64,000 bases of DNA from positions 46,856 to 110,855 of the forward strand of contig UQNQ01000004.1 of the NCBI GenBank assembly GCA_900542425.1, given 5' to 3'. Every line of letters starts with the position of its first letter. Position 1 is the stretch's first letter. The notes under the pieces were generated by a model that was not told the DNA's origin, did no database searches, and was given only the letters and a program-made list of their open reading frames with translations. This document shows positions 22,029-61,623 of the stretch, one piece after another. The position numbers and the translations under genes are program-made. Source of the DNA: an uncultured Eubacteriales bacterium. GTDB taxonomy: Bacteria > Bacillota > Clostridia > Oscillospirales > CAG-272.

Positions 22029-22034
22029 TAGAAT

Positions 22035-22067
22035 AAAAGGAAGCACGGTATAACTGTGCTTCCTTTT
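22035..22067. terminator. bidirectional terminator
   Basis: AAAAGGAAGCAC-loop-GTGCTTCCTTTT, between convergent genes. Confidence 0.75.
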
Positions 22068-22079
22068 ATTCTATATTGT

Positions 22080-24584
22080 TTAAGCAAGTCCGAATTTTTT
22101 CGCGGCTTCCTCACGCATTTTATATTTGAGAATTTTTCCTGCGGCATTCATCGGAAAGCTATCTACGAAATCAACATAGCGGGGAACTTTATGCCGTGCC
22201 ATGCTTGCCGCGACGAACGATTTGATTTCTTCTTCCGTCGCTGTTTCTCCGTCTCGAAGAACGATGCACGCCATGATTTCCTCTCCGTAGCGTTTGTCGG
22301 GTACACCGATGACCTGAACATCCTTGACTTTCGGGTGTGTATAGAGAAATTCCTCAATTTCCTTTGGATAAATATTTTCTCCGCCTCGGATAATCATATC
22401 CTTAAGACGACCGGTAATTCGGTAGTTTCCGTCCGGTGTGCGGCAGGCAAGATCTCCTGTATGCAGCCAACCGTCATGATCGATGACCGCGGCGGTAGCG
22501 GACGGCATTTTGTAGTATCCTTTCATTACATTGTAGCCGCGTGCAACAAATTCTCCGTTTGTGCCGTCCGGTGCGTCAAGTCCGGTTTCAGGATCGATGA
22601 TTTTGCATTCCACATGCGGAAATGCATATCCGACGGTTTCGCAACGGATATCAAGCGGATCATCGAGTTCTGTCATCGTACAGCCGGGTGAGGATTCTGT
22701 TTGTCCGTATACGCTGACAATACCGCGCATATTCATTTCGTCCGGCATCGCTGCCCGGCGCATCAGATCTGCCGGACAGTTGGATCCAGCCATAATGCCG
22801 GTGCGCATATAGGAAAAATCCGTTTTGCGATAATCTTCATGGTTCATCATAGCAATGAACATGGTCGGTACTCCGTGGAAACAGGTAATATGCTCGTCAT
22901 TTACGCACGCAAGAGAGGATTTGGGTGAAAAGTAGGGAAGCGGCAGTACGGTTGCGCCATGCGTCATAGCGGCGGTCATGGCAAGAACCATCCCGAAGCA
23001 GTGGAACATCGGAACCTGAATCATCATACGGTCCGCTGTGGAAAGATCCATACGATCTCCGATGCATTTGCCGTTATTGACGACATTGTAGTGGGTGAGC
23101 ATGACACCTTTCGGGAATCCTGTTGTACCGGAGGTATACTGCATGTTGCAGACGTCTTGAGGAGAGACCTTTTCCGCCATTGCTTTTATGGTTTCCTCAG
23201 AGACTCCTATGCTGCGGGAAACCGCTTCCTCCCATGTCATACAACCTTTTTGACGGAATCCGACTGTAATGACATTGCGCAGAAAGGGAAGTCTTCTCGC
23301 GTGAAGCGGCTCCATCGGATCTTTTTGAGAAAGCTCCGGACAAAGTTCTGCGATGATTTCTGCATAATCGGAGTCGCGCCAGCCGTGTATCATAATCAGA
23401 GTATGGGTGTCTGATTGCCGAAGAAGATATTCTGCTTCATGAATTTTATAGGCGGTATTGACTGTGACAAGTACCGCGCCGATTTTGGTGGTTGCCCAAA
23501 AGGCAATATACCATTGCGGCAGGTTGGTTGCCCAAACGGCGACATGAGAGCCTGCCCGCACTCCCATATCGACAAGCGCTCTGGCAAAGGTATCGACATC
23601 ATCCCGGAATTCCGCATAGGTACGTGTATAATCAAGCGTTGTATATTTAAAAGCATACTGGTCGGGGAATTCCTCAACGAGACGATCCAGTACCTCAGAG
23701 AAAGTCAGATCGACGAGCGCTTCTTTCTGCCAAATAAATTTTCCTGTATGAAGTTTATTTTCATAGAGCTTTTTTTCCGCCCGCTCTAAACTTTTGTATT
23801 TCGACATATAACTTGTGAAATGCAAAAGGATGATGTCCATGTCGGTCATATCGGGCATCCACGCCGGATCCCACTCGAGAGAAATGAAGCCGTCATAGTT
23901 GATGGAACGCAGAGCAAGCATCATTTCATCCAGAGGCAGTGTACCTTCGCCAATCAGACGATATTCCGGTTTGCCGTCTATCATTTCCGAATCCTTCAGA
24001 TGAATATGTTTGATATAAGCGCCGAGGTTTTTAAGAGAGGTTTCTGCGCTTTCACCTGCTTTTCTGTAGGTGTGGTGCATATCCCAAAGCGCACCGAGAT
24101 TGTCGCAGGCAAAGCGATCAAGTACGGCGCAAAGTCTGGAGGTATCCGCATAAATTCCGACGGTTTCAAGAAGCAGAGTAACATTTTCTTTTTCTGCTTC
24201 CGGCACGAGCGCTTCCAGATACCGGCAGACTGTCGCATCTGCTTTATCCGCATCCGCGGCACATGCTCTGACACGTACATAGGGAATTTTCAGGCTTGCC
24301 GCCGTTTCGATGCAATCGACAATTTCCGCTACTGTCGTTTCAAAATCCGACATGTCGGAAATATCACGTACAGAATCGACACACGGTACGGAAATGCCTC
24401 TTTCCATTAGATTCCGATATGTCGCACGGATCATATTTTTGTCAAATACCGCATTTTTTCCGGTAAAAATACGGTTGTGAATATCATGAATTTCAATGCC
24501 GTCGTATCCCATTTCGACAGCCTTGTCGCAAAAATCTTTCCAGGACGGAACTTGCCATCCCTTGGTGGAAAACGAAAATTTCAT
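22080..24584 (-). CDS. fusion protein: xylose-isomerase-like TIM barrel + AMP-forming acyl-CoA ligase
   Basis: 834 aa. Residues 1-265 or so (MKFSFSTKGW...GYDGIEIHD...HIHLKD...ISLEWD) form a sugar-phosphate isomerase/epimerase-type barrel. The rest is ANL superfamily (YTSGTTGFPKGVMLTH, YGQTE, WLHTGD, GRLKDMIIRGGENIYP, GKILK). RBS GAGGAGG. Starts 20 nt after the LeuA-like stop. Confidence 0.85.
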   Translation of the reverse strand: MKFSFSTKGWQVPSWKDFCDKAVEMGYDGIEIHDIHNRIFTGKNAVFDKNMIRATYRNLMERGISVPCVDSVRDISDMSDFETTVAEIVDCIETAASLKIPYVRVRACAADADKADATVCRYLEALVPEAEKENVTLLLETVGIYADTSRLCAVLDRFACDNLGALWDMHHTYRKAGESAETSLKNLGAYIKHIHLKDSEMIDGKPEYRLIGEGTLPLDEMMLALRSINYDGFISLEWDPAWMPDMTDMDIILLHFTSYMSKYKSLERAEKKLYENKLHTGKFIWQKEALVDLTFSEVLDRLVEEFPDQYAFKYTTLDYTRTYAEFRDDVDTFARALVDMGVRAGSHVAVWATNLPQWYIAFWATTKIGAVLVTVNTAYKIHEAEYLLRQSDTHTLIMIHGWRDSDYAEIIAELCPELSQKDPMEPLHARRLPFLRNVITVGFRQKGCMTWEEAVSRSIGVSEETIKAMAEKVSPQDVCNMQYTSGTTGFPKGVMLTHYNVVNNGKCIGDRMDLSTADRMMIQVPMFHCFGMVLAMTAAMTHGATVLPLPYFSPKSSLACVNDEHITCFHGVPTMFIAMMNHEDYRKTDFSYMRTGIMAGSNCPADLMRRAAMPDEMNMRGIVSVYGQTESSPGCTMTELDDPLDIRCETVGYAFPHVECKIIDPETGLDAPDGTNGEFVARGYNVMKGYYKMPSATAAVIDHDGWLHTGDLACRTPDGNYRITGRLKDMIIRGGENIYPKEIEEFLYTHPKVKDVQVIGVPDKRYGEEIMACIVLRDGETATEEEIKSFVAASMARHKVPRYVDFVDSFPMNAAGKILKYKMREEAAKKFGLA

Positions 24585-24604
24585 ATGTCCTCCTCACTTT
24601 TCCT

Positions 24605-26008
24605 TTAGATATTTTCGTCATAGGCGATCTTGTTGATCGCATTCACATAGGCACGGATGCTCGAGCCGATAATATCCGTAGAAATTCCGTTCCCAGAATA
24701 AAGTTTCCCGTCGCGGCGGAGTTTCACGAGAGCCGATCCCATTGCTTCTTTTCCTTCTGTGACGGATTGAATCTGAAAATCGTCCAGTTCATATTTTTTG
24801 CCGATGATTTGATCGACCGCAAGGAATGCCGCGTCAATCGGACCATGACCGGCGCAGACTCCCTCAAGGATCTCTCCATTTTTTTCCATTTTGATATAAG
24901 CAGTGGAGGCGATTCCGCTTCCGTTTGTCACCATAAAACCAATGAGACGATACGTATCCGGTACCTGGAGAGCAACGGTAGCGATAATGGCTTCGAGTTC
25001 TACGGCGCCGACGCTTTTTTTGGCGGCTGTGCTTACGACGGACTCATAAACCTTCGCGAGATCTTCGTCGGAAAGATCATATCCGAGTTTTTTCACAGCG
25101 GCTGTAACCGTTTCGATATCGTCACCTTCACTCAGCGCTGCGATATCGTTTCGACTGTCGGGTACGGTAATTTTGTCGGCTGAAACGGAAGAAATTCCGG
25201 TTACAAGGCCGAGCGCACGCAACGACCGTTTCATTTCCGTAATCCGGATGCCGCAGCGAAGACCAATATCCTCTCCGCGGATACGAATGATTTGAGAAAG
25301 TTCGCTGAGTGAGGGAGCTGAGGAAGCATTTCCTACCGTAACTGCGGCACCCGAGGCTCCTGCGCGGAGCGCAGATACCGTGCAGGCGGCGGCAAGAGAG
25401 ATTCCGTTTGCACATTGTATTTCAAGAGGAATATCAGAAAGAGCCGGAATCTCATGTATGAGTTTTTCGATAAAAGCTGAAATTTCATCTGGCATCATAT
25501 TTCCGGCACTGTCACATATGGTGATGGTTGTGGCACCGGCGGATATTGCGGCGCTGATTGCCTGCACAAGGTAAGTAGTTTCGCTTCTGGTCGCATCTTC
25601 TGCGGCGAAATTGACGTTTTCCGTATGCGTTTTTGCATGTGAAACAAGTTCGGTGATGAGCTCGAGAACTGCTGCCGGCTTTTTCCCGCAGTTATATTCC
25701 ATTCCTACGGCGGACATCGGAATGGAAATGAAAAGCTCTGATTTTTTCGCTGTACATACGGCATTCCATGCTTCGTCTACGGATTGAATCGTATAACCCC
25801 CCGCCGGCATAGACAGCGTACTGTTTGAAACAACGGCGGCCATGGTTCTTGTCGCCATTGTATCCGGCTTCGGATTGCGGATCATGGGAAGCCGTATGGT
25901 GTCCACGCCCAGTCGGTCGAGCACCTTTGCTACTTCAACCTTTTCTTTAAAAGAAAGTGATTCACCAGATTCGGTAAGTGTGATATCGGTGAGCTTGATT
26001 TGTTTCAT
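24605..26008 (-). CDS. LeuA/homocitrate-synthase-like protein with degenerate catalytic motifs and intact LeuA-dimer regulatory domain
   Basis: 467 aa. Collinear with isopropylmalate synthase (EKVEVAKVLDRLGVDTI, FAAEDATRSE, GATTITICDSAGNMMPDE, and a C-terminal YELDDFQIQSVTEGKEAMGSALVKL...G.GISTDIIGSSIRAYVNAINK). However DTTLRDGEQ is DITLTESGE, HxHND is QCANG, and GERAGN is GNASSAPS. Confidence 0.75.
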   Translation of the reverse strand: MKQIKLTDITLTESGESLSFKEKVEVAKVLDRLGVDTIRLPMIRNPKPDTMATRTMAAVVSNSTLSMPAGGYTIQSVDEAWNAVCTAKKSELFISIPMSAVGMEYNCGKKPAAVLELITELVSHAKTHTENVNFAAEDATRSETTYLVQAISAAISAGATTITICDSAGNMMPDEISAFIEKLIHEIPALSDIPLEIQCANGISLAAACTVSALRAGASGAAVTVGNASSAPSLSELSQIIRIRGEDIGLRCGIRITEMKRSLRALGLVTGISSVSADKITVPDSRNDIAALSEGDDIETVTAAVKKLGYDLSDEDLAKVYESVVSTAAKKSVGAVELEAIIATVALQVPDTYRLIGFMVTNGSGIASTAYIKMEKNGEILEGVCAGHGPIDAAFLAVDQIIGKKYELDDFQIQSVTEGKEAMGSALVKLRRDGKLYSGNGISTDIIGSSIRAYVNAINKIAYDENI

Positions 26009-26060
26009 GTAAACCTCCTTGCGCAGCGCCTGACACGCTGATTAGCAATTTTTTAGAATA

Positions 26061-26352
26061 AAAAAAGCCGTTCCTGTGAAAATTCACAGGGACGACAATC
26101 CATTTGGCCGCGGTACCACCCCGATTACCGTTCATGAGAACGGTCTCTTTTCCCGGTTCGGCAAAAATGCTTAAACCGGTGCGGCTGTAACGGGCGCTTC
26201 CGTAGTCATCTAATCCGTTTCCGTTTCAAAGACTCCGCTCCGGAATGAGACTGTACACGCTTCCGTTGCTGTCTGCTCGCACCGTCCGCAGACTCTCTGA
26301 ACGCCGTAAAGCCATACATAATTCCATCATCGCGTTTGTTTTTTGATTACTA
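26061..26352 (-). promoter_or_regulatory. T-box riboswitch leader, specifier CUC (Leu)
   Basis: On the reverse strand: GCGATGATGGAA (K-turn/Stem I base), AGAGAG bulge, GGTGCGAG distal loop, and a specifier loop ..GTCTC-A-TTCC with CTC at 26249-26247. The T-box is GGGGTGGTACCGCGG (26120-26106). The terminator is GTCGTCCCTGTG-aatttt-CACAGGAACGGC followed by T7. Confidence 0.85.
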
Positions 26353-26358
26353 CATATC

Positions 26359-26387
26359 ACTATAACAGAAAATTTTTTGCTTGTCAA
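26359..26387 (-). promoter_or_regulatory. promoter of Leu T-box operon
   Basis: Reverse strand: TTGACA, 17-nt spacer, TATAGT. Confidence 0.6.
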
Positions 26388-26509
26388 GAAAAATCGAAAA
26401 GTTTTTTCTTGCTTTGAAAAGAATCAATTTATAAGAAAAGGTGCGGACTTGGACGATACCGGTTTATGTATTTATTTCGCCGAAAAGGCCTGGTGTGATA
26501 TGAGAAGTC

Positions 26510-27301
26510 TTAGTTCATTGGAAAGAGACGCATAAAATTTCCGGAAAAGAACATCTCGTATTCTGCCTCGGAAAGCCCGAATGTCCGAACGCGCTCAAGC
26601 TCTCCTGTGGCATCCCAAATAGGAAAATCCGTGCCGAACATGAACCGGTCAATCCCGAATTTTTCAAACATAGAAAGGGCATAGTCCCGTGAAATGAACA
26701 TGGTGGAACTGGAAGTATCAAACCAAAGCCTGTCGGAGGGAACCAGCAAATCATGTGCTTCCTGCCATCTTCTGTATCCGCCGAAATGTGCGGCGATCAC
26801 GGTCAGATCGGGGATTTTTTTCATAACTGTCGCAAGTTTTGCCGGCGAGGAGGATTCATACCGGTCGTCTCCCATATGCATTAAAAGGGGAAGACCGCGC
26901 TTCGCAATGGCGCGATAGAGAGGAAATACCTTTTCATCGTCAATGTCAAATTTTTGAAAGTCGGGATGCAGCTTGATTCCGCGAAGTCCGAGGGAAACCG
27001 CACGGTCAATTTCCTCTTCAAAATTCCTGTAATACGGATGAATGGAGGCAAGCGCTGTGAAACAATCGTGGTCTTTCGCCATTTGTGCCATAAAATCGGT
27101 GATCGTTTCTGTTTGATCCGGTGTAACAGCGGCGGAACAAACAAGATAATGAGAAACGCCGGCGGCAGTTCCGTCTTTTAACAGATTGGCAACGGAAGCA
27201 GGGGCGCAGTATTTCATTTGATAGAATCCACCGATGGATTTGGATACCTTTTCCGATATTTTATCAGGGAAAATATGCGTATGGGCATCTATGATTTTCA
27301 T
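26510..27301 (-). CDS. amidohydrolase-2 / TatD-like metal-dependent hydrolase
   Basis: 263 aa. MKIIDAHTHIFP, LHPDFQ, LLMHMGD, FGTDFP. Confidence 0.8.
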   Translation of the reverse strand: MKIIDAHTHIFPDKISEKVSKSIGGFYQMKYCAPASVANLLKDGTAAGVSHYLVCSAAVTPDQTETITDFMAQMAKDHDCFTALASIHPYYRNFEEEIDRAVSLGLRGIKLHPDFQKFDIDDEKVFPLYRAIAKRGLPLLMHMGDDRYESSSPAKLATVMKKIPDLTVIAAHFGGYRRWQEAHDLLVPSDRLWFDTSSSTMFISRDYALSMFEKFGIDRFMFGTDFPIWDATGELERVRTFGLSEAEYEMFFSGNFMRLFPMN

Positions 27302-27571
27302 GGTTTTTCACCATCCTTTTGCATTTTTGGACAAAAAAATCCGTTCCTTTTTTGAAATAGAATTGGATTTATTGTTTGGAAGAAAAAATTATAGCACTTT
27401 TTTTTCTTTTTTGCAAGAGAAAAGGAAAAAATATAATTCCCGTTTTTTTGAAATTTTGATTTTACATGTTTTTTTACTTTGTTATATATAAAGAAACAGA
27501 TATTTCTTTTTTTATAGAAATTCCGTCGAAAATTCACCGTGAAGAAGCGTAAAAAATTATTCAAAAAATTC

Positions 27572-27600
27572 TTGACAAATGTTTCGAACTGTGATATATT
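27572..27600 (+). promoter_or_regulatory. promoter of Ile T-box operon
   Basis: TTGACA, 17-nt spacer, TATATT. Confidence 0.6.
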
Positions 27601-27606
27601 CTTATT

Positions 27607-27886
27607 ATCATAATAAAAAAGCTGTGACGGAGAGGATCCGAATCTAATGCTTTCAGAGAGCCGGTGGCAGGTGAGAACCGGTGGCAGGCGATTCAAGTGG
27701 TCTATCGCTCCCGAGCTGGAATCGTGAAAATCGTGTGATGATGAAGTAGCGCTTCCCGTGATTGCTGCGTCAAGGCATGGGGCTTGTCGGAGTCCGAGAG
27801 AGGCGGTCTTTTGATCGCAATTTGAGTGGTACCGCGGATGTATTTATACACCCGTCTCAAAGAAATTGAGACGGGTGTTCCTTTTT
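27607..27886 (+). promoter_or_regulatory. T-box riboswitch leader, probable specifier AUC (Ile)
   Basis: Stem I base AGCT-GTGAC-GGAG (27620-27632) pairs with CTCC-CG-AGCT (27708-27717). AGAGAG bulge, GGTGAGAAC distal loop. ATC (27704-27706) followed by a purine lies directly 5' of the closing CTCC. The T-box is TTGAGTGGTACCGCGG (27822-27837). The terminator is ACACCCGTCTC-loop-GAGACGGGTGT followed by a T-run. Confidence 0.8.
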
Positions 27887-27963
27887 ATAAGGTGCTCGTC
27901 CGAATCTTCAAATAAAAATGCTTCTGTGTACCGGCGCACGGAGGGAAAGGTAGGAATCGGAAT

Positions 27964-30240
27964 ATGGATGCACAAACACAAACGATGTCGGGACAGCTTT
28001 TGGAGATTGCCGCGCGTATTCGGGAAATGCGGCAGGTCTCCGGTTTTACCGAGGCGGAAATGGCGGAAAAAACAGACACCAGTGTGGAGGAATACAGACG
28101 TTATGAGCTGGGAGAGCTTGATTTTCCTTTTACCTTTATCCATAAATGCGCGATCGCATTTGGAATTGCGATTGCGGATTTGTTAGAGGGAGAAAGTCCA
28201 AAGCTGTCCTCCTATATGGTAACACGAAAGGGAGAAGGACAACAAACGGCAAAGGAAGACGGTATCAGTATTCAAAATCTTGCACCTTTGTTTCGCGGCA
28301 AGCTGGCTGAACCGTATTGGGTACGTTATGATTATTCTGAGGAGTTGCAGCGCCGCCCGATTCATTTGACGACGCATTCCGGACAGGAATTTGATATTGT
28401 GCTTTCCGGTAGGCTGAAGGTGCAGGTCGGCGCCAATACGGAAATTTTAAATGAAGGCGACAGTATTTTTTACGATTCTTCCACGCCGCACGGAATGATC
28501 GCCGTAGACGGACGGGATTGTTGCTTCTGTGCCGTGGTTATCCCCGGCGAAGCGAAATCGGAGAGGGAGATCCGCGACAGCGTGGTTTCGGCACGAAGTG
28601 TGGAAAAGCTTGTGTGCAGCAAGTTTATTGAGACAGTAGAAGATGAAAACGGAACGCCGAAGGAAATCCGTTACAAAAATCCGGAACAATTTAATTTTGC
28701 TTTTGATATTGTCGATGAACTTGCGGCAAAATATCCGAATAAAACCGCTATGATACATCTTGACCGTGATAAAAACGAAAGAATTTTTACTTTTGCCGAT
28801 ATCAAACGCGCTTCTTCGCAATGTGCAAATTATTTTAAGTCGCTCGGAATTCGGAAAGGGGACCGCGTGATGCTGGTGCTAAAACGGCATTATGAGTTCT
28901 GGTTTGCTATTATCGGACTTCATAAACTCGGCGCGATTGCCATTCCCGCAACCAACCTGTTAAAGGATCATGATTATGTTTACCGTTTCAACGCCGCCGG
29001 TGTTTGTGCAATTATTTGCTCGGCAGACGGGGATATTGCGGAACAGGTAGATCTTGCTACTTCTCAGTCTCCGACGCTGAAAACAAAAATCCTTGTCGGC
29101 GGCAGGCGTGAGGGATGGTATGATTTTGACAGCAGCTATAATCTTTTCTCCGGAAAATTTGCGCGTGAAAAGGACGCACCGTGCGGTTCGGATACCATGC
29201 TGATGTTCTTTACCTCCGGTACGACGGGATATCCGAAAATAGCTGCTCACAGCTATACCTATCCGCTTGCCCATTTTGCTACGGCAAAGTATTGGCATTC
29301 GGTAGATGCCGACGGACTGCACTTTACCATTTCCGATACAGGCTGGGGGAAAGCTCTATGGGGCAAGCTTTATGGACAATGGCTATGCGAGGGCGCCGTC
29401 TTTACTTATGATTTTGACCGTTTTCATGCCGCCGATATTCTGCCGTTGTTTGCAAAATATCATATTACAACGTTCTGTGCTCCGCCGACGATGTACCGCA
29501 TGATGATTAAAGAAGATATTTCCAAATATGATTTCAGTTCTGTTAAACGCGCGACAACTGCCGGAGAAGCGCTGAATCCGGAGGTGTTTGTGCAGTTTGA
29601 AAAGGCTACGGGACTTCAGCTAATGGAGGGCTTCGGACAGACGGAAACCACGCTCACGATTGCCAACCTTACAGGAGTTGCACACAAGATCGGCGCGATG
29701 GGTAAGCCGGTTCCTCCTTATGAAATTGAGCTTCTTTCTCCGGAAGGAAAGCCAGTTGCAGACGGCGAAACAGGAGAAATCTGTATCAAAACGGAGGACG
29801 GAAAGGTTCCTTGCGGACTTTTCAAAGGCTATTGGGGCGAGCCTGAAAAGACAGCGGAGGTTTGGCACGACGGATATTATCATACAAGAGATGTCGCATG
29901 GCGCGATGAGGACGGATTTTTCTGGTATGTCGGACGGAGCGACGATGTTATCAAATCTTCCGGCTATCGGATCGGTCCGTTTGAAATCGAAAGCGTCATT
30001 ATGGAGCTTCCGTATGTATTGGAATGCGGTGTATCCGCGGCGCCGGACGAAGTGAGAGGACAGGTCGTCAAGGCGAGTGTTGTCTTGACCAAAGGAACAG
30101 AGCCTACGGAGGCGCTCAAAAAAGAAATTCAGGAATATGTGAAAGCAAAAACGGCGCCGTATAAATATCCCCGTATTGTCGTATTCAGGGATGAGCTTCC
30201 CAAAACGATCAGCGGGAAAATTATCCGCAATCAGCTGTAA
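27964..30240 (+). CDS. fusion protein: XRE HTH + cupin + AMP-forming (medium/short-chain) acyl-CoA synthetase
   Basis: 758 aa. N-terminal HTH (IREMRQVSGFTEAEMAEKTDTSVEEYRRYELGE). Cupin (HSGQEFDIVLSGRLKVQVG...GDSIFYDSSTPHGM). Then ANL motifs FFTSGTTGYPK, GFGQTET, YHTRDVAWRDEDGFFWYVGRSDDVIKSSGYRIGPFEIES, PKTISGKIIR. Confidence 0.85.
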   Translation: MDAQTQTMSGQLLEIAARIREMRQVSGFTEAEMAEKTDTSVEEYRRYELGELDFPFTFIHKCAIAFGIAIADLLEGESPKLSSYMVTRKGEGQQTAKEDGISIQNLAPLFRGKLAEPYWVRYDYSEELQRRPIHLTTHSGQEFDIVLSGRLKVQVGANTEILNEGDSIFYDSSTPHGMIAVDGRDCCFCAVVIPGEAKSEREIRDSVVSARSVEKLVCSKFIETVEDENGTPKEIRYKNPEQFNFAFDIVDELAAKYPNKTAMIHLDRDKNERIFTFADIKRASSQCANYFKSLGIRKGDRVMLVLKRHYEFWFAIIGLHKLGAIAIPATNLLKDHDYVYRFNAAGVCAIICSADGDIAEQVDLATSQSPTLKTKILVGGRREGWYDFDSSYNLFSGKFAREKDAPCGSDTMLMFFTSGTTGYPKIAAHSYTYPLAHFATAKYWHSVDADGLHFTISDTGWGKALWGKLYGQWLCEGAVFTYDFDRFHAADILPLFAKYHITTFCAPPTMYRMMIKEDISKYDFSSVKRATTAGEALNPEVFVQFEKATGLQLMEGFGQTETTLTIANLTGVAHKIGAMGKPVPPYEIELLSPEGKPVADGETGEICIKTEDGKVPCGLFKGYWGEPEKTAEVWHDGYYHTRDVAWRDEDGFFWYVGRSDDVIKSSGYRIGPFEIESVIMELPYVLECGVSAAPDEVRGQVVKASVVLTKGTEPTEALKKEIQEYVKAKTAPYKYPRIVVFRDELPKTISGKIIRNQL

Positions 30241-30929
30241 TGAGGAGAAAGGGGTGTTCTGCCTTGAATATTTCCCGTGTTACGCTGTTTGCAGGACATT
30301 ACGGCAGCGGCAAGACCAATATTGCCGTGAATTATGCCGTTTATCTTGCGGCATTGAATTATTCCGTCACCATTGCCGATCTTGATATCGTCAATCCATA
30401 TTTTCGTACCAAGGACAGTGAAAATCTGCTTACATCTCACGGCATTCGTCTGATCAGTCCCGTCTATGCAAATACCAATCTTGATCTTCCTGCGCTTCCG
30501 GCAGAAATGTACGATGTTGTCCGGGATACGGATCGTCTTGCCGTGCTGGATATCGGCGGTGACGACCGGGGTGCCTATGCCCTTGGAAGATATGCTCCTT
30601 CTATTTTGGAGGAAAACCGGTATGAGATGCTGTTTGTCGCAAATTTTTACCGTCCCTTGACAAGAAACGCAGGGGAGGCGCTTGAGGTGATGAGGGAAAT
30701 TGAATGCGCCTGCGGGATGCGGTTTACCGCGCTTGTCAACAATTCCAATCTGGGAGAAGAAACGACTGCACAGACAGTGCTCGAATCTGTTCCGGAAGCG
30801 GAGCGGCTTGCCGGTATGTGCGGCTTGCCTGTCAAAATGACGACGGTTTGCCGGAAACTTCTTCCAGAACTTTCTGACAGTATTCATCATTTATTTGCGT
30901 TGGATCTTCAAACAAAATATTATGAATAA
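30240..30929 (+). CDS. MinD/ParA/CooC-like P-loop ATPase
   Basis: 229 aa. Deviant Walker A FAGHYGSGKTNIA, and LDIGGDD. The start is uncertain: the ATG at 30240 overlaps the upstream stop, while TTG 30264 lies 9 nt after GAGGAGAAAGGGG. Confidence 0.65.
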   Translation: MRRKGCSALNISRVTLFAGHYGSGKTNIAVNYAVYLAALNYSVTIADLDIVNPYFRTKDSENLLTSHGIRLISPVYANTNLDLPALPAEMYDVVRDTDRLAVLDIGGDDRGAYALGRYAPSILEENRYEMLFVANFYRPLTRNAGEALEVMREIECACGMRFTALVNNSNLGEETTAQTVLESVPEAERLAGMCGLPVKMTTVCRKLLPELSDSIHHLFALDLQTKYYE

Positions 30930-30998
30930 ACTGCACCTTTAGATTGTTTTACGACTGCTTTGCGGCAGTGAATCTATAAAAAAGGAGATGAAAAATTC

Positions 30999-31205
30999 AT
31001 GGCAAAGCTTACATTCAAAACCGATCTTTGTAAGGGATGCGGACTGTGCGTAGATGCCTGTCCAAAGAAAATCCTTGCACTCGCAAAAGGAAAAATCAAT
31101 AAAAAAGGACACAATCCCGTTGAGGTGATTGACGAGAGCGCATGTATCGGCTGTGCTTTTTGTGCAACGATGTGTCCGGACTGCATTATCACGGTAGAAA
31201 AATAA
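30999..31205 (+). CDS. 2-oxoacid:ferredoxin oxidoreductase delta subunit (2x[4Fe-4S] ferredoxin)
   Basis: 68 aa. CKGCGLCVDACP and CIGCAFCATMCP. RBS AAAGGAG. Confidence 0.8.
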   Translation: MAKLTFKTDLCKGCGLCVDACPKKILALAKGKINKKGHNPVEVIDESACIGCAFCATMCPDCIITVEK

Positions 31206-31253
31206 AAATGACTGCGTTCCGGCTCGAATGCCGGAATGACATGGAGGGTTAGT

Positions 31254-32318
31254 ATGGCAGAAAAAGTACTTATGAAAGGGAATGAGGCGATCGCTGAGGC
31301 GGCGATTGCCGCCGGTTGCCGCCATTATTACGGCTATCCGATCACGCCTCAAACCGAAATTGCAGCTTATATGGCAAAGCGAATGCCGAAGATAGGAGGC
31401 GTTTTCCTTCAGGCGGAAAGTGAAATTGCCGCTATCAATATGGTTTACGGAACCGCTTCTGCGGGGTATCGTGTGATGACTTCTTCGTCGAGCCCCGGTA
31501 TCTCGCTTAAATCAGAAGGGCTTTCCTATATTGCAGGAAGTGATCTGCCGTCTCTTGTTGTCAATGTTCAGCGAGGCGGGCCTGGACTCGGCAGCATTCA
31601 GCCGGCACAGTCCGATTATTTTCAGGCAACTAAGGGAGGCGGTCACGGAGACTATCACATGATTGTTCTGGCGCCTGCTTCTGTACAGGAAATGGCAAGC
31701 CTGACGGTGCGCGGCTTTGATCTTGCGGATAAATATCGTATGACTTCGATGATCCTTGCCGACGGGACGATGGGTCAGATGATGGAGCCCGTTTCCTTTG
31801 AAAGCATTGAGGTGAAGAAATATGATAAGCCATGGGCATTGACTGGCACGCATGGAAAACGGGAGCATAACATTATTACATCGCTTTCTCTTGTTCCGAA
31901 GGAACTTGAAAAATGGAACTTTGATCGTTACGAGAGATACCGCCTGATTGAAGAAAATGAAGTGATGTATGAAGAATTTATGATGGAAGATGCAGAAGTC
32001 TGCATTGTTGCATTTGGTATTACTGCACGTGTATCGCAGAATGCTATCCGTATGGCACGCGAAAAAGGTATCCGTGCAGGTATGATTCGCCCGATCACGC
32101 TTTGGCCGTTTCCCAAAAAGCCTCTTGAAGCGGCTGCTGAACGTGTGAAAGCGTTTGTTTCTGTCGAGCTCTCTATGGGACAGATGATTGAGGATGTAGA
32201 GCTTGCAACGAGATGTAAAAAGCCGGTTTTGCTCTGCAATCGTGTGGGCGGTATGATTCCGTCTCCGGAGCTTGTACTCTCAAAAATCGAAGAAGCGAAC
32301 GGAGGAGAGAAAAAATGA
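31254..32318 (+). CDS. 2-oxoacid:ferredoxin oxidoreductase alpha subunit (VorB/KorA-like)
   Basis: The track ORF starts at 31236. The ATG at 31254 follows GGAGGG. MAEKVLMKGNEAIAEAAIAAGCRHYYGYPITPQTEI, QRGGPGLG, KGGGHGDY. Confidence 0.85.
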   Translation: MAEKVLMKGNEAIAEAAIAAGCRHYYGYPITPQTEIAAYMAKRMPKIGGVFLQAESEIAAINMVYGTASAGYRVMTSSSSPGISLKSEGLSYIAGSDLPSLVVNVQRGGPGLGSIQPAQSDYFQATKGGGHGDYHMIVLAPASVQEMASLTVRGFDLADKYRMTSMILADGTMGQMMEPVSFESIEVKKYDKPWALTGTHGKREHNIITSLSLVPKELEKWNFDRYERYRLIEENEVMYEEFMMEDAEVCIVAFGITARVSQNAIRMAREKGIRAGMIRPITLWPFPKKPLEAAAERVKAFVSVELSMGQMIEDVELATRCKKPVLLCNRVGGMIPSPELVLSKIEEANGGEKK

Positions 32319-33085
32319 TTGTGTTTGATAAACCGAAATCCTTAACCGACGCGCCTCTGCATTATTGCCCGGGTTGTACACACGGTATTATTCATCGATT
32401 GGTTGCGGAGGCAATTGATTCACTGGGAATCGAGGGGATTGCCGTTGGCGTGGCACCGGTAGGCTGTGCAGTATTTGCGTATAACTATTTTGCCTGCGAC
32501 ATGGTGGAAGCAGCCCACGGACGTGCGCCGGCAGTCGCAACAGGACTCAAGCGCGCGGAACCGGAAAATATTATTTTTACTTATCAGGGCGACGGAGACC
32601 TTGCTTCCATAGGAATGGCGGAAACGGTACATGCCGCCGCAAGAAATGAAAATATCACCATTATTTTCGTCAACAATGCGATTTACGGTATGACAGGCGG
32701 ACAGATGGCTCCGACTTCGCTGCCCGGTCAGGTTACGCAGACATCTCCTTATGGACGCGATACTTCGGTTTGCGGGTTTCCGGTCCGTGTTTGCGAGATG
32801 CTTTCTCAGGTGGATGGGGCAGAGTATATTGAGCGTGTTGCCGTCAACAATGTGAAAAATATCAAAAATGCAGGACGGGCAATCAAAAAAGCATTTGAAA
32901 ATCAGATAAACGGAAAAGGCTTTTCTCTCATCGAAGTGATTTCTTCGTGTCCGACCAACTGGGGAATGACACCGAAAAAAGCACTTGAATGGGTAGAAGA
33001 AAAAATGATTCCGTATTATCCGCTTGGAATTTATAAGGATCGTTCAGCAGGCATTGTATACGGAAAGGAGGGGGCCGCGAAATGA
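32315..33085 (+). CDS. 2-oxoacid:ferredoxin oxidoreductase beta subunit (TPP-binding)
   Basis: 256 aa. YCPGCTHG, GDGD...NNAIYGMTGGQ is the TPP motif. ATGA overlap with alpha. Confidence 0.9.
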   Translation: MIVFDKPKSLTDAPLHYCPGCTHGIIHRLVAEAIDSLGIEGIAVGVAPVGCAVFAYNYFACDMVEAAHGRAPAVATGLKRAEPENIIFTYQGDGDLASIGMAETVHAAARNENITIIFVNNAIYGMTGGQMAPTSLPGQVTQTSPYGRDTSVCGFPVRVCEMLSQVDGAEYIERVAVNNVKNIKNAGRAIKKAFENQINGKGFSLIEVISSCPTNWGMTPKKALEWVEEKMIPYYPLGIYKDRSAGIVYGKEGAAK

Positions 33086-33618
33086 GCACAACAGAGATTT
33101 TGATTGCAGGCTTTGGCGGACAAGGGATTTTGTTTGCCGGAAAATTTCTCGCATACAAAGGAATGCTGGAAGAAAAGCAGATCAGCTGGCTGCCGTCTTA
33201 TGGCCCCGAGATGCGCGGCGGAACGGCAAACTGCAGTGTGATTATCAGCGATACGCCGGTCGGCTCTCCGATTGTTACGACTCCGAATGTTTTGATGGTG
33301 ATGAATCTGCCGTCCTTTGATAAATATGAGAATGACGTTGTGAAAGACGGAATTATTCTTGTGGACAGCACTTTGATCGAGCGGAAAGCATCGCGGGATG
33401 ATGTCAGTGTGTTTTACATTCCCGCAACGCAGATGGCGCAGGACGCAGGTGTTCCGACTCTTGCCAATATGATTATGGTAGGTAAGCTTCTGCGGGAATG
33501 TCCTGGGATGGATTATGAAAATACAGAGGCAGCGCTTAAAAAGGTTGTTTCCGCAAAACATATGGATCTCTTTGATTTGAATCTGAAAGCGATTGACATG
33601 GGGTATCACTTTGTCTGA
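33082..33618 (+). CDS. 2-oxoacid:ferredoxin oxidoreductase gamma subunit
   Basis: 178 aa. ILIAGFGGQGILFAGKFLA, YGPEMRGG. ATGA overlap with beta. Confidence 0.85.
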   Translation: MSTTEILIAGFGGQGILFAGKFLAYKGMLEEKQISWLPSYGPEMRGGTANCSVIISDTPVGSPIVTTPNVLMVMNLPSFDKYENDVVKDGIILVDSTLIERKASRDDVSVFYIPATQMAQDAGVPTLANMIMVGKLLRECPGMDYENTEAALKKVVSAKHMDLFDLNLKAIDMGYHFV

Positions 33619-33627
33619 TTCCGTGGG

Positions 33628-33664
33628 AAATCTCTCAGGCTTTTTTGCCTGGGAGATTTTTTCT
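33628..33664 (+). terminator. rho-independent terminator of OFOR operon
   Basis: AAATCTCTCAGGC-tttttt-GCCTGGGAGATTT followed by a T-run. Confidence 0.8.
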
Positions 33665-33686: not shown

Positions 33687-33715
33687 TTGACAAACAGGGG
33701 TAACTGCGTTATAAT
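33687..33715 (+). promoter_or_regulatory. sigma-A type promoter
   Basis: TTGACA, 17-nt spacer, TATAAT. Confidence 0.6.
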
Positions 33716-33772
33716 AATCCGGATAGTAAATGAGCTTTACAAGGGGAAGGAGCGGCGGTCAGCCGGAAAACC

Positions 33773-34627
33773 ATGTTTGGAAAAAAAATCAAAGAGCTTC
33801 GTCTCGAAAAAAAGATGACACAGGCAGAGCTTGCAAAGGGAATTATTACTCGGAATATGCTCAGCCAAATTGAAAACGATGTGGCGTCTCCGTCCGTTTC
33901 GACCGCATGCGAGCTTGCAAAACGGCTGAATACACCGCTGGCTTATTTTTTTGCAGATTCCGGAACGCTTGATGATTATCGGAAAATGGATGCGATAGGT
34001 AAAATCAAACAACTGTATGCGTCAAAAGAATATGAAAAATGTCTCTCAAAGATAAAATCGCTTGGTGTATACGATGATGAAACAGAGTTCATTTTTACCA
34101 AGGCAAGTCTTGCACGCGGAATTGAGATGTATCGGGCGGGTTGTCTGGAAAGTGCTCGTTCCTATTTTCAGAGCGTGCTGTCTCATGCGGGAGAAAGTCT
34201 GTATAGTAGTTCGGAACTTGAAAATACGGCGGTACAGTATCTTGAGGCCATTTCATGGATTTATTCGGACGGGGAAACGAAAATCGAAGTTTTTGAAGAA
34301 AACGATGCGGATAGAAGGAATGTCCTTGCAGATCTTGCATATATCCAAGCGGTATCTTCGGGGAAAACGGCATTTGCATACAGCGAGGATGATTCTCCGT
34401 ATGCCAAGCATCTTGATGCACGCGCCAATATGGAAAGAGGAGATTTTCAGAGGGCGGCAAAAAAGCTGCGGGAACTGACAGCCGGTGACATAGAAGACCA
34501 ATACGCAGTCGTGAAATATTGTGCTTTGCGTGATTTAGAGATTTGTATGAGCCGAGAAGGCGATTATAAAAGTGCTTATGAATGCGCAAGTGAAAGGCTT
34601 GCTCTTTTTCATCAAATGAACAAATAA
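33773..34627 (+). CDS. XRE-family HTH regulator with C-terminal helical (TPR-like) domain
   Basis: 284 aa. IKELRLEKKMTQAELAKGIITRNMLSQIENDVASPSVSTACELAKRLN is the HTH. The remainder is helical-repeat-like. Confidence 0.7.
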   Translation: MFGKKIKELRLEKKMTQAELAKGIITRNMLSQIENDVASPSVSTACELAKRLNTPLAYFFADSGTLDDYRKMDAIGKIKQLYASKEYEKCLSKIKSLGVYDDETEFIFTKASLARGIEMYRAGCLESARSYFQSVLSHAGESLYSSSELENTAVQYLEAISWIYSDGETKIEVFEENDADRRNVLADLAYIQAVSSGKTAFAYSEDDSPYAKHLDARANMERGDFQRAAKKLRELTAGDIEDQYAVVKYCALRDLEICMSREGDYKSAYECASERLALFHQMNK

Positions 34628-34645
34628 AAGGAAATATAATAGATA

Positions 34646-36364
34646 ATGCTGAAACGATTTATTAAGTATTATAAACCTCATAGAAAACTTTTTGCACTGG
34701 ATATGATTTGCTCTTTTCTGCTTTCCGCGTGCGATCTTTTCTATCCGATGATCACAAGATCCATGCTGAATGACTACATACCGAATAAGAAGCTTCGTGT
34801 TTTAATTGTGTGGGGCGTGATTCTTCTTGTCATTTACCTGATTAAAATGGGATTTAAGTATTTTATTCAATATTACGGGCATGTTGTCGGTGTCCGTATG
34901 CAGGCAGATATGAGAAAAGAAGCTTTTGATCATCTTGAAAAGCTGCCGTTTTCCTATTTTGACAACAATAAAACGGGCTCGATTATGTCGCGTATTATCA
35001 ATGATCTTCAGGAAATTGCGGAACTTGCTCATCATGGACCGGAGGATCTTATTGTTTCCATCTTTTTGCTGATTGGTTCCTTTATTCTGATGGCAACGAT
35101 CAATCTTCCTCTGACGCTGATTATTTTTGCATGTATTCCGATTTTGGTTATTTTTGCGGCAAGAAAACGTCTGAAAATGAGTCACGCTTTCGCCGAGTCG
35201 CGCGCCGAGGTTGCGGAGGTCAACGCAACGCTGGAAAACAGCATTGCCGGCGTTCGTGTATCCAAAGCATTTGACAATGCGGCATATGAGAGTGAAAAAT
35301 TTAATCGGTTCAATAAACGGTTTGTCGGAGCAAAGTCGAAAGCATATCGTGCTATGGCGGAATTTTTCGGAGGAAACGGTTTTATTGTCGATTTTTTAAA
35401 TGTTGTGATTTTGGTGGCAGGCGGAATTTTTACATATAACGGCTATATTGATTTCGCAGATTTTGCTTCTTTTATCATTTTTGTCAACATATTTATGACC
35501 CCGATTCGGAATCTTATCAATTTTGTTGAGCAGCTTCAGGACGGTATGAGCGGTTTTGTCCGTTTTTGCGAGCTGATGGATACGCCGGTGGAAAAAGATG
35601 CGGACGATGCACGGGAACTGGAAAATGTGAAGGGAAAAATCGTATTTGATCACGTCAGATTTTCCTACGCTGAGGGAGAGAAAGAGATTCTCTCAGATAT
35701 TGACCTTGTGATAGAACCTGGCGAGACGGTGGCTCTTGTTGGACCATCAGGCGCCGGCAAGACGACGATGTGTCATATCCTGCCTCGGTTTTATGACATC
35801 ACGGGAGGAAAAATTTTGATTGACGGACAAGATATCTCGGCAGTGACGCATGCTTCTTTGCGAAGAAATATCGGAATTGTAACACAGGACGTATTTCTTT
35901 TTACCGGGACAATTTATGAAAATATTGCTTATGGCAAAGAGGGAGCCACCCGCGAGGAAGTGGAAGATGCCGCAAAGCTTGCCAATATTCATGACTTTAT
36001 TGTCTCACTGCCTGATGGATACGATACCTTTGTCGGAGAGCGCGGCGTCAAGCTGTCCGGCGGGCAGAAGCAACGTATTTCCATTGCGCGTGTGTTTTTA
36101 AAAAATCCTGCCATTCTGATTCTTGATGAGGCGACAAGCGCGCTCGACAATGCGACGGAGATTTTGATCCAAAAGTCTTTGGATTTGCTTTGCCGAGGTC
36201 GTACAACGATTGTTGTTGCCCACAGACTTTCCACTGTCAAAAATGCGGACGAGATTGTTGTGATGACGGATGAGGGAATTCAGGAGCGGGGCAGTCACTC
36301 GGCACTTCTTGAAGCCGGAGGCATTTACGCGGAACTTTATCGGTCGCAGTTTGCATCCGTATAA
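34646..36364 (+). CDS. ABC transporter, fused permease/ATPase (MsbA-type exporter)
   Basis: 572 aa. Six-TM domain, then GPSGAGKTT, LSGGQKQR, ILILDEATSALD. Confidence 0.9.
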   Translation: MLKRFIKYYKPHRKLFALDMICSFLLSACDLFYPMITRSMLNDYIPNKKLRVLIVWGVILLVIYLIKMGFKYFIQYYGHVVGVRMQADMRKEAFDHLEKLPFSYFDNNKTGSIMSRIINDLQEIAELAHHGPEDLIVSIFLLIGSFILMATINLPLTLIIFACIPILVIFAARKRLKMSHAFAESRAEVAEVNATLENSIAGVRVSKAFDNAAYESEKFNRFNKRFVGAKSKAYRAMAEFFGGNGFIVDFLNVVILVAGGIFTYNGYIDFADFASFIIFVNIFMTPIRNLINFVEQLQDGMSGFVRFCELMDTPVEKDADDARELENVKGKIVFDHVRFSYAEGEKEILSDIDLVIEPGETVALVGPSGAGKTTMCHILPRFYDITGGKILIDGQDISAVTHASLRRNIGIVTQDVFLFTGTIYENIAYGKEGATREEVEDAAKLANIHDFIVSLPDGYDTFVGERGVKLSGGQKQRISIARVFLKNPAILILDEATSALDNATEILIQKSLDLLCRGRTTIVVAHRLSTVKNADEIVVMTDEGIQERGSHSALLEAGGIYAELYRSQFASV

Positions 36365-41716: not shown

Positions 41717-42544
41717 ATGGCGTTGCGGCTTGCTTTGCAGCTTTATTCCGTAGGGGAGGATGCTAAAAAGGATTTGGATGGAACGCTTCGGCGAGTAAAA
41801 GAAATGGGATATGAGGGCGTGGAATTTGCCGGACTTTACGGGCATGATGCCGCCGAAGTTGCGGAAATGCTTTATAAATACGGATTGATTCCGGTATCTG
41901 CGCATGTGCCTCTTGAAGAATTGGAAACAAAATTTGATGAGGTGGCTGCATCATATAAGCAGATTGGCTGTCCGTATCTTGCAGTTCCTTATCTTATCCA
42001 TGCGCTTCAGCCGGTTTCCGGTAATTTTGAAGAGGCCATTTCCCGTATCGAAGCGGTGGCAAAACGATACACTGAGGCTGGTTTTATTGTTTCTTATCAC
42101 AATCATGATTTTGAGTTTAAGACCATAAACGGTGTATTGGCATTGGACTTGCTTTATGAACGTATCTCAGAGGAATACTTAAAAACACAAATTGATACGT
42201 GCTGGGCAAATGTCGGCGGGGTAGATCCGGCTTCGTATGTGCTCAAATATACTGGACGGGCGCCAACCGTGCATATCAAGGATTTTTATTTAAAGGGAAA
42301 ACCTCAGAATCATATGTATAAATTGTTGTGTGATAAAGATGACAGAAAGGAAGAGGAAGGAAACTTTTCTTACCGTCCCGTCGGATATGGTCTTCAGGAT
42401 GTCCCGAAAATTATGGCCGCCTGCAAAAAAGCAGGAACCGAATGGGTAATCGTTGAGCAAGACGGCGTCAGCCATCCGAGCGCTGTCAAAATGGATGAGG
42501 TGGCGCTCAGTGCGGAATACATTTTGAAGAATCAGTTACTGTAA
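41717..42544 (+). CDS. sugar phosphate isomerase/epimerase (xylose-isomerase-like TIM barrel)
   Basis: 275 aa. LALQLYSV...MGYEGVEFAG...YHNHDFEF...VHIKD...VIVEQD. Confidence 0.8.
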   Translation: MALRLALQLYSVGEDAKKDLDGTLRRVKEMGYEGVEFAGLYGHDAAEVAEMLYKYGLIPVSAHVPLEELETKFDEVAASYKQIGCPYLAVPYLIHALQPVSGNFEEAISRIEAVAKRYTEAGFIVSYHNHDFEFKTINGVLALDLLYERISEEYLKTQIDTCWANVGGVDPASYVLKYTGRAPTVHIKDFYLKGKPQNHMYKLLCDKDDRKEEEGNFSYRPVGYGLQDVPKIMAACKKAGTEWVIVEQDGVSHPSAVKMDEVALSAEYILKNQLL

Positions 42545-54676: not shown

Positions 54677-54700
54677 AAAACAGAATACAGAGAAAGCGGA

Positions 54701-55594: not shown

Positions 55595-55674
55595 ATGTAT
55601 AGGGAGCAAAGAAGCTTCTTGCCTGCTCATTATTAAATTTCTATTATCAATCATTATAAATGGAGGATACAATT

Positions 55675-56799: not shown

Positions 56800-56978
56800 T
56801 TGACGTCTGTACGCAAGGATATCTGGACAGGGCTGATACCGGAGAGGTGACAGAGCGGTTTGTCGCCGATAAGAATTTTTGGATGATATCAAAAACATCA
56901 TGCGACTGAAAACAAATCTGTAACCCGCCGCAGAGTATCCGGCGGAGCATAAAACGAATCACAAGGAGACAGAGAAAA

Positions 56979-59813: not shown

Positions 59814-59846
59814 GCTAATATGATTGAAAAATTGGAGCGATTGAAT

Positions 59847-61614: not shown

Positions 61615-61623
61615 GGAGAAAAT

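Follow-up and report, generated by a model that had tools for sequence, protein, structure and literature searches.

Two T-box leaders and the operons behind them

The 64 kb stretch of contig UQNQ01000004.1 analysed here, referred to as the window, comes from an uncultured Eubacteriales bacterium and carries two divergent operons, each behind a T-box leader, which encode two unrelated acyl-CoA ligases, a 2-oxoacid:ferredoxin oxidoreductase and several partner proteins. A sequence-only reading of this DNA had proposed that the locus converts branched short-chain fatty acids into branched-chain amino acids under the control of tRNA charging. The proposal was followed up by searching the entire window with the Rfam T-box covariance model (RF00230, gathering score 93 bits), by annotating the encoded proteins with Pfam and NCBIfam profile searches, and by comparing the locus with related loci from other species.

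The Rfam search found two T-box leaders and no further one in the 64 kb window. The Leu leader lies on the minus strand at 26085..26339 (104.3 bits, E 5.8e-22) and the Ile leader on the plus strand at 27615..27862 (94.3 bits, E 2.3e-19); both cover the full model (1-219) and both exceed the gathering score. The leaders are divergent and point outward, with 1,276 bp between their 5' ends, which matches the arrangement and the spacing of about 1.2 kb described earlier. The covariance-model alignment also places the specifier codons exactly where a manual fold had put them, namely CUC followed by A in the Leu leader and AUC followed by G in the Ile leader, in both cases directly 5' of the basal Stem I helix. 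In addition, the GA (K-turn) motif, the specifier loop, the AGAGA bulge and the distal GGUG loop are all aligned in both leaders, which share the conserved T-box sequence GGUGGUACCGCG and an antiterminator bulge reading UGGU.

Each leader is preceded by a promoter-like site scoring 11/12 in the scan, with a TTGACA box, a 17 nt spacer and a TG-extended -10 element. This element reads TATAGT in the site of the Leu leader (26359..26387, minus strand) and TATATT in that of the Ile leader (27572..27600, plus strand), and orthologous Leu leaders in related loci are preceded by the same near-consensus promoter. Both leaders end in terminator hairpins whose 5' arm is common to the 3' arm of the antiterminator and which are followed by a U run. 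For the Leu leader, the intrinsic terminator was read from the sequence at 26060..26096 (minus strand) as a hairpin and U7 overlapping the antiterminator 3' arm, and the 66-nt stretch containing it has a minimum free energy of -24.0 kcal/mol (z -2.66). The Ile terminator was found by scan at 27848..27888 (plus strand) and consists of a 13-pair stem and a U run; the 71-nt stretch containing it folds at -24.7 kcal/mol (z -4.73), and 0/200 shuffles fold as well. Judged by these features, both leaders are bona fide T-boxes with a complete terminator/antiterminator architecture, and a response to tRNA is predicted for each.

Behind the Ile leader, the profile searches retained the gene order given before (acyl-CoA synthetase, P-loop ATPase, then the delta, alpha, beta and gamma subunits of the oxidoreductase) and added that the ligase is itself a fusion. 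Its gene (27964..30240, plus strand) encodes 758 amino acids (aa) in which an XRE-type helix-turn-helix (HTH) and a cupin domain precede the acyl-CoA synthetase (Pfam Cupin_2, AMP-binding and a weak HTH match). The N-terminal HTH, encoded within 27964-28650, stays below the Pfam cut-offs as HTH_31 and HTH_3 and shows up more clearly, as HTH_19, in the majority of homologs; the three-part fusion occurs widely and is full length in 120/120 top clusters. The best NCBIfam model for this ligase is MbcS, which it matches at 426.1 bits against an equivalog cut-off of 850, so that the protein is a relative of MbcS and not an equivalog. Its best PDB match is MacsMa (3ETC; 648 bits, E 1e-193, 54% identity over 524 aa). 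The preferred substrate of MacsMa, from Methanosarcina acetivorans, is 2-methylbutyrate (PMC10455477), and MbcS of S. aureus activates 2-methylbutyrate and isobutyrate, with poor activity on isovalerate (PMC10026030). The Ile-gated enzyme is thus best described as a putative 2-methylbutyrate-CoA ligase. The poor activity of MbcS on isovalerate fits a separate ligase class behind Leu leaders, with two MbcS/MacsMa-like paralogs predicted to serve the alpha-branched acids that correspond to Ile and Val. Operator sites for the HTH-cupin portion were sought in two ways, and no conserved HTH operator emerged from either: the inverted-repeat search between the genes gave AT-rich low-complexity pairs only, and the candidates TTGTCAA/TTGACAA in 90 aligned leader promoter regions proved to be -35 boxes of divergent promoters, that is, the promoters themselves.

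The following gene (30240..30929, plus strand), whose start overlaps the ligase stop codon, encodes a 229-aa P-loop nucleoside triphosphatase (NTPase) of the SIMIBI class, with a Walker A motif reading GHYGSGKT and weak CbiA and ParA Pfam matches. Its AlphaFold2 model has a predicted local distance difference test score of 85, and the Foldseek neighbours of that model are HypB-ATPase and signal recognition particle GTPases at template-modelling scores of ~0.5. A NifH-like role as ATP-driven electron donor was considered and rejected: no Cys is conserved in 40 orthologs, the fold neighbours are generic SIMIBI proteins only, and the PDB sequence matches span the Walker A region alone. The four oxidoreductase genes follow on the same strand. 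The delta subunit (30999..31205) is a 68-aa ferredoxin with two CxxCxxCxxxCP (4Fe-4S) motifs; the alpha subunit (31236..32318; Pfam POR_N and PFOR_II) belongs to the VorB subfamily, matching NF005507 at 538.9 bits against a cut-off of 399, and metagenome copies of its gene are called with a start 18 nt downstream (354 aa). The thiamine-diphosphate-binding beta subunit (32315..33085) matches Pfam TPP_enzyme_C, and the gamma subunit (33082..33618) matches Pfam POR (E 1.5e-35). On the strength of its subunit set and of the alpha subfamily score, the enzyme is classed as a VOR-type oxidoreductase.

On the minus strand, the two genes previously placed behind the Leu leader, for a LeuA-like protein and an acyl-CoA ligase fusion, were recovered in that order. 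The annotation added that the LeuA catalytic residues are lost, that the domain fused to the ligase is a barrel of the xylose-isomerase type, and that an amidohydrolase gene lies between the leaders. The LeuA-like protein (24605..26008, 467 aa) combines an HMGL-like barrel with a LeuA_dimer domain and falls below the cut-off of every NCBIfam LeuA model (best 283 bits against 532). When it is aligned to LeuA in the PDB, DTTLRDGEQ is replaced by DITLTES--GE and HCHND by QCANG, which removes the substrate Arg and all three metal ligands. The former catalytic positions are variable across 72 members of this LeuA-like family. The LeuA_dimer domain (PF08502, E 7e-31) is the most conserved part: conservation of 90% or more is found in 44% of its columns and in 14% of those of the barrel. 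Judged by these residues, the protein is not a LeuA: it is predicted to be catalytically dead and to have kept the leucine-binding regulatory domain, and a role as sensor or regulatory subunit is the preferred reading.

The ligase fusion (22080..24584, minus strand, 834 aa) starts 20 nt after the LeuA-like gene and joins a TIM barrel (Pfam AP_endonuc_2) to an acyl-CoA ligase that forms adenosine monophosphate (AMP; Pfam AMP-binding and AMP-binding_C). It represents a large and well-conserved family, and the NCBIfam model that it matches best, PRK12583, gives 674 bits, short of the cut-off of 832; behind its Leu leader, it is a candidate isovalerate-CoA ligase. In the window protein, the TIM barrel (PF01261, E 4e-29) has all four Glu/Asp/His/Glu metal ligands. 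Among 80 family members, E140 is present in 62 and replaced in 18, D168 is present in 57 and replaced in 23, and E237 is present in 54 and replaced in 26. The profile searches did not reach a specific subfamily for the fused barrel, the nearest models being keto-sugar epimerases/isomerases far below their cut-offs.

The third protein on this strand (26510..27301, 263 aa) is an Amidohydro_2 (ACMSD-type) member of the metal hydrolase/decarboxylase family (Pfam E 1.8e-33), distantly related to ACMSD-type decarboxylases. Its metal site HxH...H...H...D is conserved and complete. Most of the interval separating the leaders is taken up by this gene, which is located 5' of the Leu leader, and the scan places a promoter-like site before the gene at 27416-27388 (minus strand). 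Homologs with 32-41% identity lie 3' of the ligase fusion in 41/73 related loci, and the window gene lies upstream of the Leu leader instead. Past the other end of the operon, the scan found a palindromic terminator-like hairpin with a 20-pair perfect stem (22029..22073), situated between the ligase gene and a convergent gene for a 285-aa product whose N-terminus is hydrophobic and resembles a signal peptide; the hairpin probably terminates transcription from both sides. The gene content obtained from Pfam and NCBIfam agrees with the earlier statement that neither leader controls an aminoacyl-tRNA synthetase, a transporter or a classical ilv/leu gene, and classical ilv/leu genes are absent from the entire 64 kb window.

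Specifiers, paralogs and gene order in related loci

The comparative set was obtained by scanning one genome per GTDB species for the ligase fusion, which gave at least 598 matching stretches, and the best 80 loci were used. Their record titles are mostly metagenome-assembled genomes labelled Acutalibacteraceae, Oscillospiraceae, Faecousia, Ruminococcus, Clostridia or Eubacteriales, with a few labelled as other families, and their sample names indicate ruminant and human gut material. The window proteins and the T-box core motifs were mapped onto these 80 loci. The heuristic used to call specifiers (a purine after the codon and a UGA K-turn) was unsuited to about 25 leaders, which were read by eye, and the specifier was left undecided in two, one incomplete (L012) and one ambiguous (L078). 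Nine leaders were verified by Rfam alignment, and all of them agree with the calls. The Val leaders described below score 87-91 bits, below the RF00230 gathering score, and were recovered in E-value mode (E ~1e-19).

The Leu-gated operon is stable in its composition. The fusion is full length in 80/80 loci, and the LeuA-like gene stands directly 5' of it in 71/71 loci with a complete LeuA-like gene, at a median gap of 10 nt. A T-box lies directly upstream of the LeuA-like gene in 54/67 loci with enough upstream sequence; loci L050, L061 and L085 carry a LeuA-like gene for which no leader was detectable. Among 56 leaders before LeuA-like genes, the specifier is CUC in 44 and CUG in 10, with two undecided. 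The leaders before HTH-cupin ligases read AUC in 17 cases, GUA in 15, GUC in 4 and CUC in 1, and AUC was also read in L087. By protein similarity, the HTH-cupin ligases form two paralog groups, one AUC-gated (17 loci) and one GUA/GUC-gated (19 loci), so that the paralog grouping coincides with the grouping of Ile and Val leaders; the Ile-gated ligase of the window clusters with the AUC-gated group. The expectation that orthologous loci keep the same specifiers before their ligases was therefore borne out, with Leu codons in 54/56 leaders of LeuA-like genes and AUC, GUA or GUC tracking the HTH-cupin paralog.

Loci with both paralogs share one order: Ile leader, ligase A, Val leader, ligase B, P-loop gene and the delta, alpha, beta and gamma genes. 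Locus L074 shows this order, and its Ile, Val and Leu leaders score 98.5, 90.9 and 113.2 bits, respectively. The window shows a reduced version of this order, without the Val leader and ligase B and with ligase A immediately next to the P-loop gene; this version recurs in L055, L057, L065 and L081. The P-loop gene is found 5' of the oxidoreductase in 36/38 loci. The leader that controls this block differs between species: it is a Val leader in the majority, an Ile leader in the window and loci like it, and a Leu leader in L019, L058, L077 and L082. Furthermore, the branched-chain aminotransferase IlvE (NF009897, 483 bits against a cut-off of 307) is encoded in 37/80 loci, many of the others being incomplete stretches. 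Its gene lies no more than ~140 nt 3' of the gamma gene in about two dozen loci and directly 5' of the P-loop gene in seven. The third MacsMa-type ligase of some loci, a protein of 559-575 aa lacking the HTH-cupin portion and 44-49% identical to the window protein, is also encoded 3' of the gamma gene and is not preceded by a T-box motif (L077:17541-19259, L061, L082 and L085).

In some species, a single Leu leader drives the whole set. In L019, a T-box reading CUC is followed by the P-loop gene, the oxidoreductase, IlvE, the LeuA-like protein, the fused ligase and the amidohydrolase, with no second T-box within the 5.2 kb examined. In L077 and L082, a CUC T-box precedes the LeuA-like gene, the fused ligase, IlvE, the P-loop gene and the oxidoreductase, with a gap of 45-62 nt between ligase and IlvE genes. 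By sequence, the leaders fall into two families, one comprising Ile and Val leaders and the other those before LeuA-like genes. The CUC leaders of L019 (L019:3936-4184) and L058 (~1200-1460) show a mean identity of 58-65% to the Ile/Val family, with up to 75% to the closest Ile leader, and are only ~50% identical to the leaders before LeuA-like genes. Their membership in the Ile/Val family indicates specifier switching within one leader lineage.

A further arrangement occurs in loci L087-L089, which come from an abundant organism and have no fused ligase nearby. Here the order is Ile leader, ligase A, Val leader, ligase B, P-loop gene, TIM-barrel gene, the delta, alpha, beta and gamma genes and IlvE, and in L087 the Ile leader scores 100.8 bits and the Val leader (GUA) 87.5 bits. 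The free-standing xylose-isomerase-like TIM-barrel gene (L087:15793-16590, also in L088 and L089) sits between the P-loop and delta genes. Orthology with the fused barrel was considered and rejected, as the two share 26% identity over 89 aa and the same superfamily only; this suggests two separate recruitments of the fold to the cluster. A tetrahydrofolate riboswitch and a cobalamin riboswitch were seen flanking two other related loci (L040:6135-6232; L060:21453-21633).

These modules invite an explanation in which the Leu-gated operon would process another leucine precursor instead of free isovalerate, with the TIM barrel and the amidohydrolase acting as real enzymes and the ligase working on their intermediate. 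The barrel would then catalyse enolisation or isomerisation next to a carbonyl group, and the ACMSD-type amidohydrolase would serve as decarboxylase, hydratase or lactonase. The complete metal site of the amidohydrolase and its position 3' of the ligase in 41/73 loci fit this idea, as do the four canonical barrel ligands, intact in the window protein and in roughly two out of three family members, the barrel gene inside the oxidoreductase operon of another lineage, and a ligase domain that has no characterised close relative. However, about one third of the family has lost two of the four barrel ligands, the domain matches offer no alternative substrate candidate (all are far below their cut-offs), and in several species one Leu leader drives only the ligase set, the oxidoreductase and IlvE, which is the exact set needed to convert isovalerate into leucine. 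An alternative precursor is therefore considered unlikely.

A predicted tRNA-gated salvage route

The interpretation favoured here is that the locus salvages branched short-chain fatty acids into branched-chain amino acids under the control of tRNA charging, a reading that on the present sequence evidence is given a probability of roughly three in four. T-box-regulated genes are expressed more strongly when the cognate tRNA is uncharged, and they consequently raise the supply of that amino acid; AMP-forming ligases, in turn, operate in the direction of activation. Taken together with a ligase, a VOR-type oxidoreductase and IlvE, this logic leaves a single supply route, consisting of activation, ferredoxin-dependent carboxylation and transamination. 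The comparative genomics strongly supports the salvage hypothesis of the sequence-only reading. In 37/80 loci, the cluster includes IlvE, and depending on the species a Val, Ile or Leu leader controls the oxidoreductase; relatives possess a third, Val-specific T-box that gates a paralogous ligase; and the type of ligase paralog tracks the specifier, with the closest characterised ligases preferring 2-methylbutyrate or isobutyrate. The same gating and the adjacent IlvE gene in relatives suggest that the oxidoreductase acts on branched substrates in the synthase direction.

In the proposed mechanism, uncharged tRNA-Ile would pair with the AUC specifier of the Ile leader while its free 3' end pairs with the UGGU bulge, thereby stabilising the antiterminator and allowing transcription into the genes for the HTH-cupin ligase, the P-loop NTPase and the four-subunit oxidoreductase. 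The ligase would turn 2-methylbutyrate into 2-methylbutyryl-CoA, converting ATP to AMP and pyrophosphate, and the oxidoreductase, running in the synthase direction, would use reduced ferredoxin and CO2 to form 3-methyl-2-oxopentanoate. A branched-chain aminotransferase, encoded in the cluster in relatives and presumably elsewhere in this genome, would then yield isoleucine. Uncharged tRNA-Leu would likewise switch on the minus-strand leader and thus the LeuA-like protein and the second, unrelated ligase fused to its TIM barrel; in this branch, the fused ligase would activate isovalerate, and the dead LeuA would serve as sensor or regulatory subunit.

The same enzymes could in principle run the other way and ferment branched-chain amino acids, with branched acids as products. 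Enzymes of this oxidoreductase family work reversibly and, according to the literature, gut bacteria use them in the oxidative direction; catabolism, too, would begin with an aminotransferase followed by such an oxidoreductase. Catabolic genes would nevertheless be expected to respond to tRNA charging in the opposite way, AMP-forming ligases conserve no energy from acyl-CoA, and the clusters lack a phosphotransacylase/kinase pair or an ADP-forming synthetase, all of which makes an oxidative role extremely improbable. Alternatively, the main task of the ligases might be the one that MbcS has in S. aureus, namely to turn scavenged branched short-chain acids into acyl-CoA primers of branched-chain membrane fatty acids. 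Branched-chain amino acids are the normal source of such primers, which would account for the T-box control, and the oxidoreductase and aminotransferase would interconvert the two pools instead of serving net amino-acid synthesis. MbcS, the top NCBIfam model of the Ile-gated ligase, has a documented role in primer supply (PMC10026030, PMC11167679), and the two uses could exist side by side because they have the acyl-CoA in common. Lipid priming, however, has no need for co-transcription with an oxidoreductase and IlvE, no fatty-acid synthesis genes were noticed in the clusters, and T-boxes sense tRNA charging, which reports the demand of translation. Primer supply as the main function is accordingly rated as quite improbable.

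Several observations weigh against amino acid salvage as the function of the locus. The oxidoreductase of the window lies behind the Ile leader only, so that a shortage of leucine by itself would switch on the Leu-gated ligase but not the enzyme for carboxylation; the Leu branch in the window works only if there is read-through, co-limitation or another oxidoreductase. Neither an aminotransferase nor a Val-type ligase is encoded in the 64 kb window, which holds the ligases and the oxidoreductase, whereas relatives encode ligase, oxidoreductase and aminotransferase in one operon. Among the NCBIfam models and sequence matches, the Leu-gated ligase has no close characterised relative, and it travels with three modules that a simple pathway would not require, namely the dead LeuA, the TIM barrel and the amidohydrolase. 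Furthermore, 13/67 LeuA-like genes have no leader directly upstream, some lying inside longer operons and some being apparently leaderless, and the scores against the NCBIfam models for MbcS and the beta, gamma and delta subunits all stay below the respective cut-offs.

Within the salvage pathway, the accessory modules may form a second layer of protein-level control and energy supply, although this extension is tentative and on balance doubtful. The dead LeuA could be a leucine-sensing allosteric subunit of the Leu-gated ligase, in which the leucine-binding domain alone is under selection. The Ile and Val ligases could, through their HTH-cupin N-terminus, bind DNA in addition to acting as enzymes, as BirA does. 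The dedicated SIMIBI NTPase could assemble the oxidoreductase or energise it for the thermodynamically uphill carboxylation. In addition, the leader lineage could offer a case of natural specifier reassignment among Ile, Val and Leu that tracks operon content.

Other genes in the window were annotated alongside the two operons. Directly 3' of the oxidoreductase operon, a 12/12 sigma-70-type promoter (TTGACA, 17 nt spacer, TATAAT) precedes a gene for a 284-aa XRE-type HTH protein (33687-34627 for both), and an ABC exporter gene comes next (34646-36364); the related loci showed no homolog of the regulator at the corresponding position. Two GFO/IDH/MocA oxidoreductases alternate with two more xylose-isomerase-like TIM-barrel proteins at 53630-57950, and a fifth such barrel is encoded at 41717-42544. 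This group looks like a sugar or inositol-type catabolic set unrelated to the T-box operons. At 59820-62901, a hisZ-like gene (tRNA-synt_His fold), hisG and hisD mark the start of a histidine biosynthesis operon, which implies that the organism makes at least some amino acids de novo.

Relation to known systems and significance

The closest biochemical precedent is the work of Allison, Bryant, Robinson and Peel in the 1960s-70s, in which rumen anaerobes were reportedly found to carboxylate isovalerate, 2-methylbutyrate and isobutyrate reductively to Leu, Ile and Val; this pathway is said to have been defined by labelling and growth requirements, not by genes. The chemistry predicted here is the same, with acyl-CoA activation, ferredoxin-dependent carboxylation and transamination, and so is the gut and rumen setting, the loci coming from Oscillospirales that include Ruminococcus-labelled genomes. 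A genome-based proposal invokes the same route to Ile in Methanobrevibacter ruminantium (PMC2812497). The present case differs from the rumen pathway in being a gene cluster, with three ligases of predicted substrate specificity, an oxidoreductase, IlvE and T-box control, that is known from sequence alone. A parallel exists in Methanococcus maripaludis, where Porat et al. in 2004 reportedly described the conversion of aryl acids into aromatic amino acids through an AMP-forming ligase and indolepyruvate oxidoreductase. Both routes use a ligase, a reversed 2-oxoacid:ferredoxin oxidoreductase and a transaminase as an alternative source of amino acids, whereas the archaeal route has other substrates, another oxidoreductase subfamily and no T-box control.

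In Firmicutes, T-box leaders regulate the ilv-leu operon, ileS, leuS and valS with the specifiers CUC, AUC and GUA. The leaders studied here share that RNA architecture, the specifier codons and the predicted mechanism of transcription antitermination. In contrast, the genes behind them form a predicted fatty-acid salvage set with no synthetase, transporter or classical ilv/leu enzyme, and one leader lineage appears to have switched its specifier among Ile, Val and Leu as operon content changed. At the protein level, the Ile-gated ligase domain is related to MacsMa and MbcS, both of which prefer alpha-branched C4-C5 acids; both lack the HTH(XRE) and cupin N-terminus (~230 aa) of the window protein, and MbcS feeds lipid synthesis and not amino-acid synthesis. 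The oxidoreductase agrees with VOR-type enzymes (NF005507) in its delta-alpha-beta-gamma order, domain set and Fe-S motifs. It differs from them in the SIMIBI P-loop NTPase that precedes it, in the TIM-barrel protein added in one lineage, and in its tRNA-sensing control, which implies the synthase direction. In the full-text literature searched, outside which most subscription journals lie, neither T-box control of these ligases and this oxidoreductase nor bacterial genes of the rumen pathway were found. The chemistry and the RNA mechanism are each known; what appears to be new is their combination, the design with three ligases and three specifiers, and the conserved partner proteins.

The dependence of fibre-degrading ruminococci on isobutyrate, 2-methylbutyrate and isovalerate, from which they make Val, Ile and Leu, has been part of the textbook knowledge on the rumen for six decades and underlies the feeding of "isoacids" to dairy cattle. 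The gene set described here would provide a gene-level handle on this pathway, which since the 1960s has been known in biochemical terms only. At least 80 species-level genomes of gut and rumen Oscillospirales offer a coherent set comprising three ligases with their own switches, an oxidoreductase, an aminotransferase and partner proteins. The consumers of branched fatty acids, which are host-relevant metabolites in the human gut, would become testable from genes, as would the driving force of the uphill carboxylation and the evolution of T-box specifiers together with operon content. If true, the proposal would extend the T-box regulon by a new functional class, in which precursors are salvaged by running 2-oxoacid oxidation in reverse.

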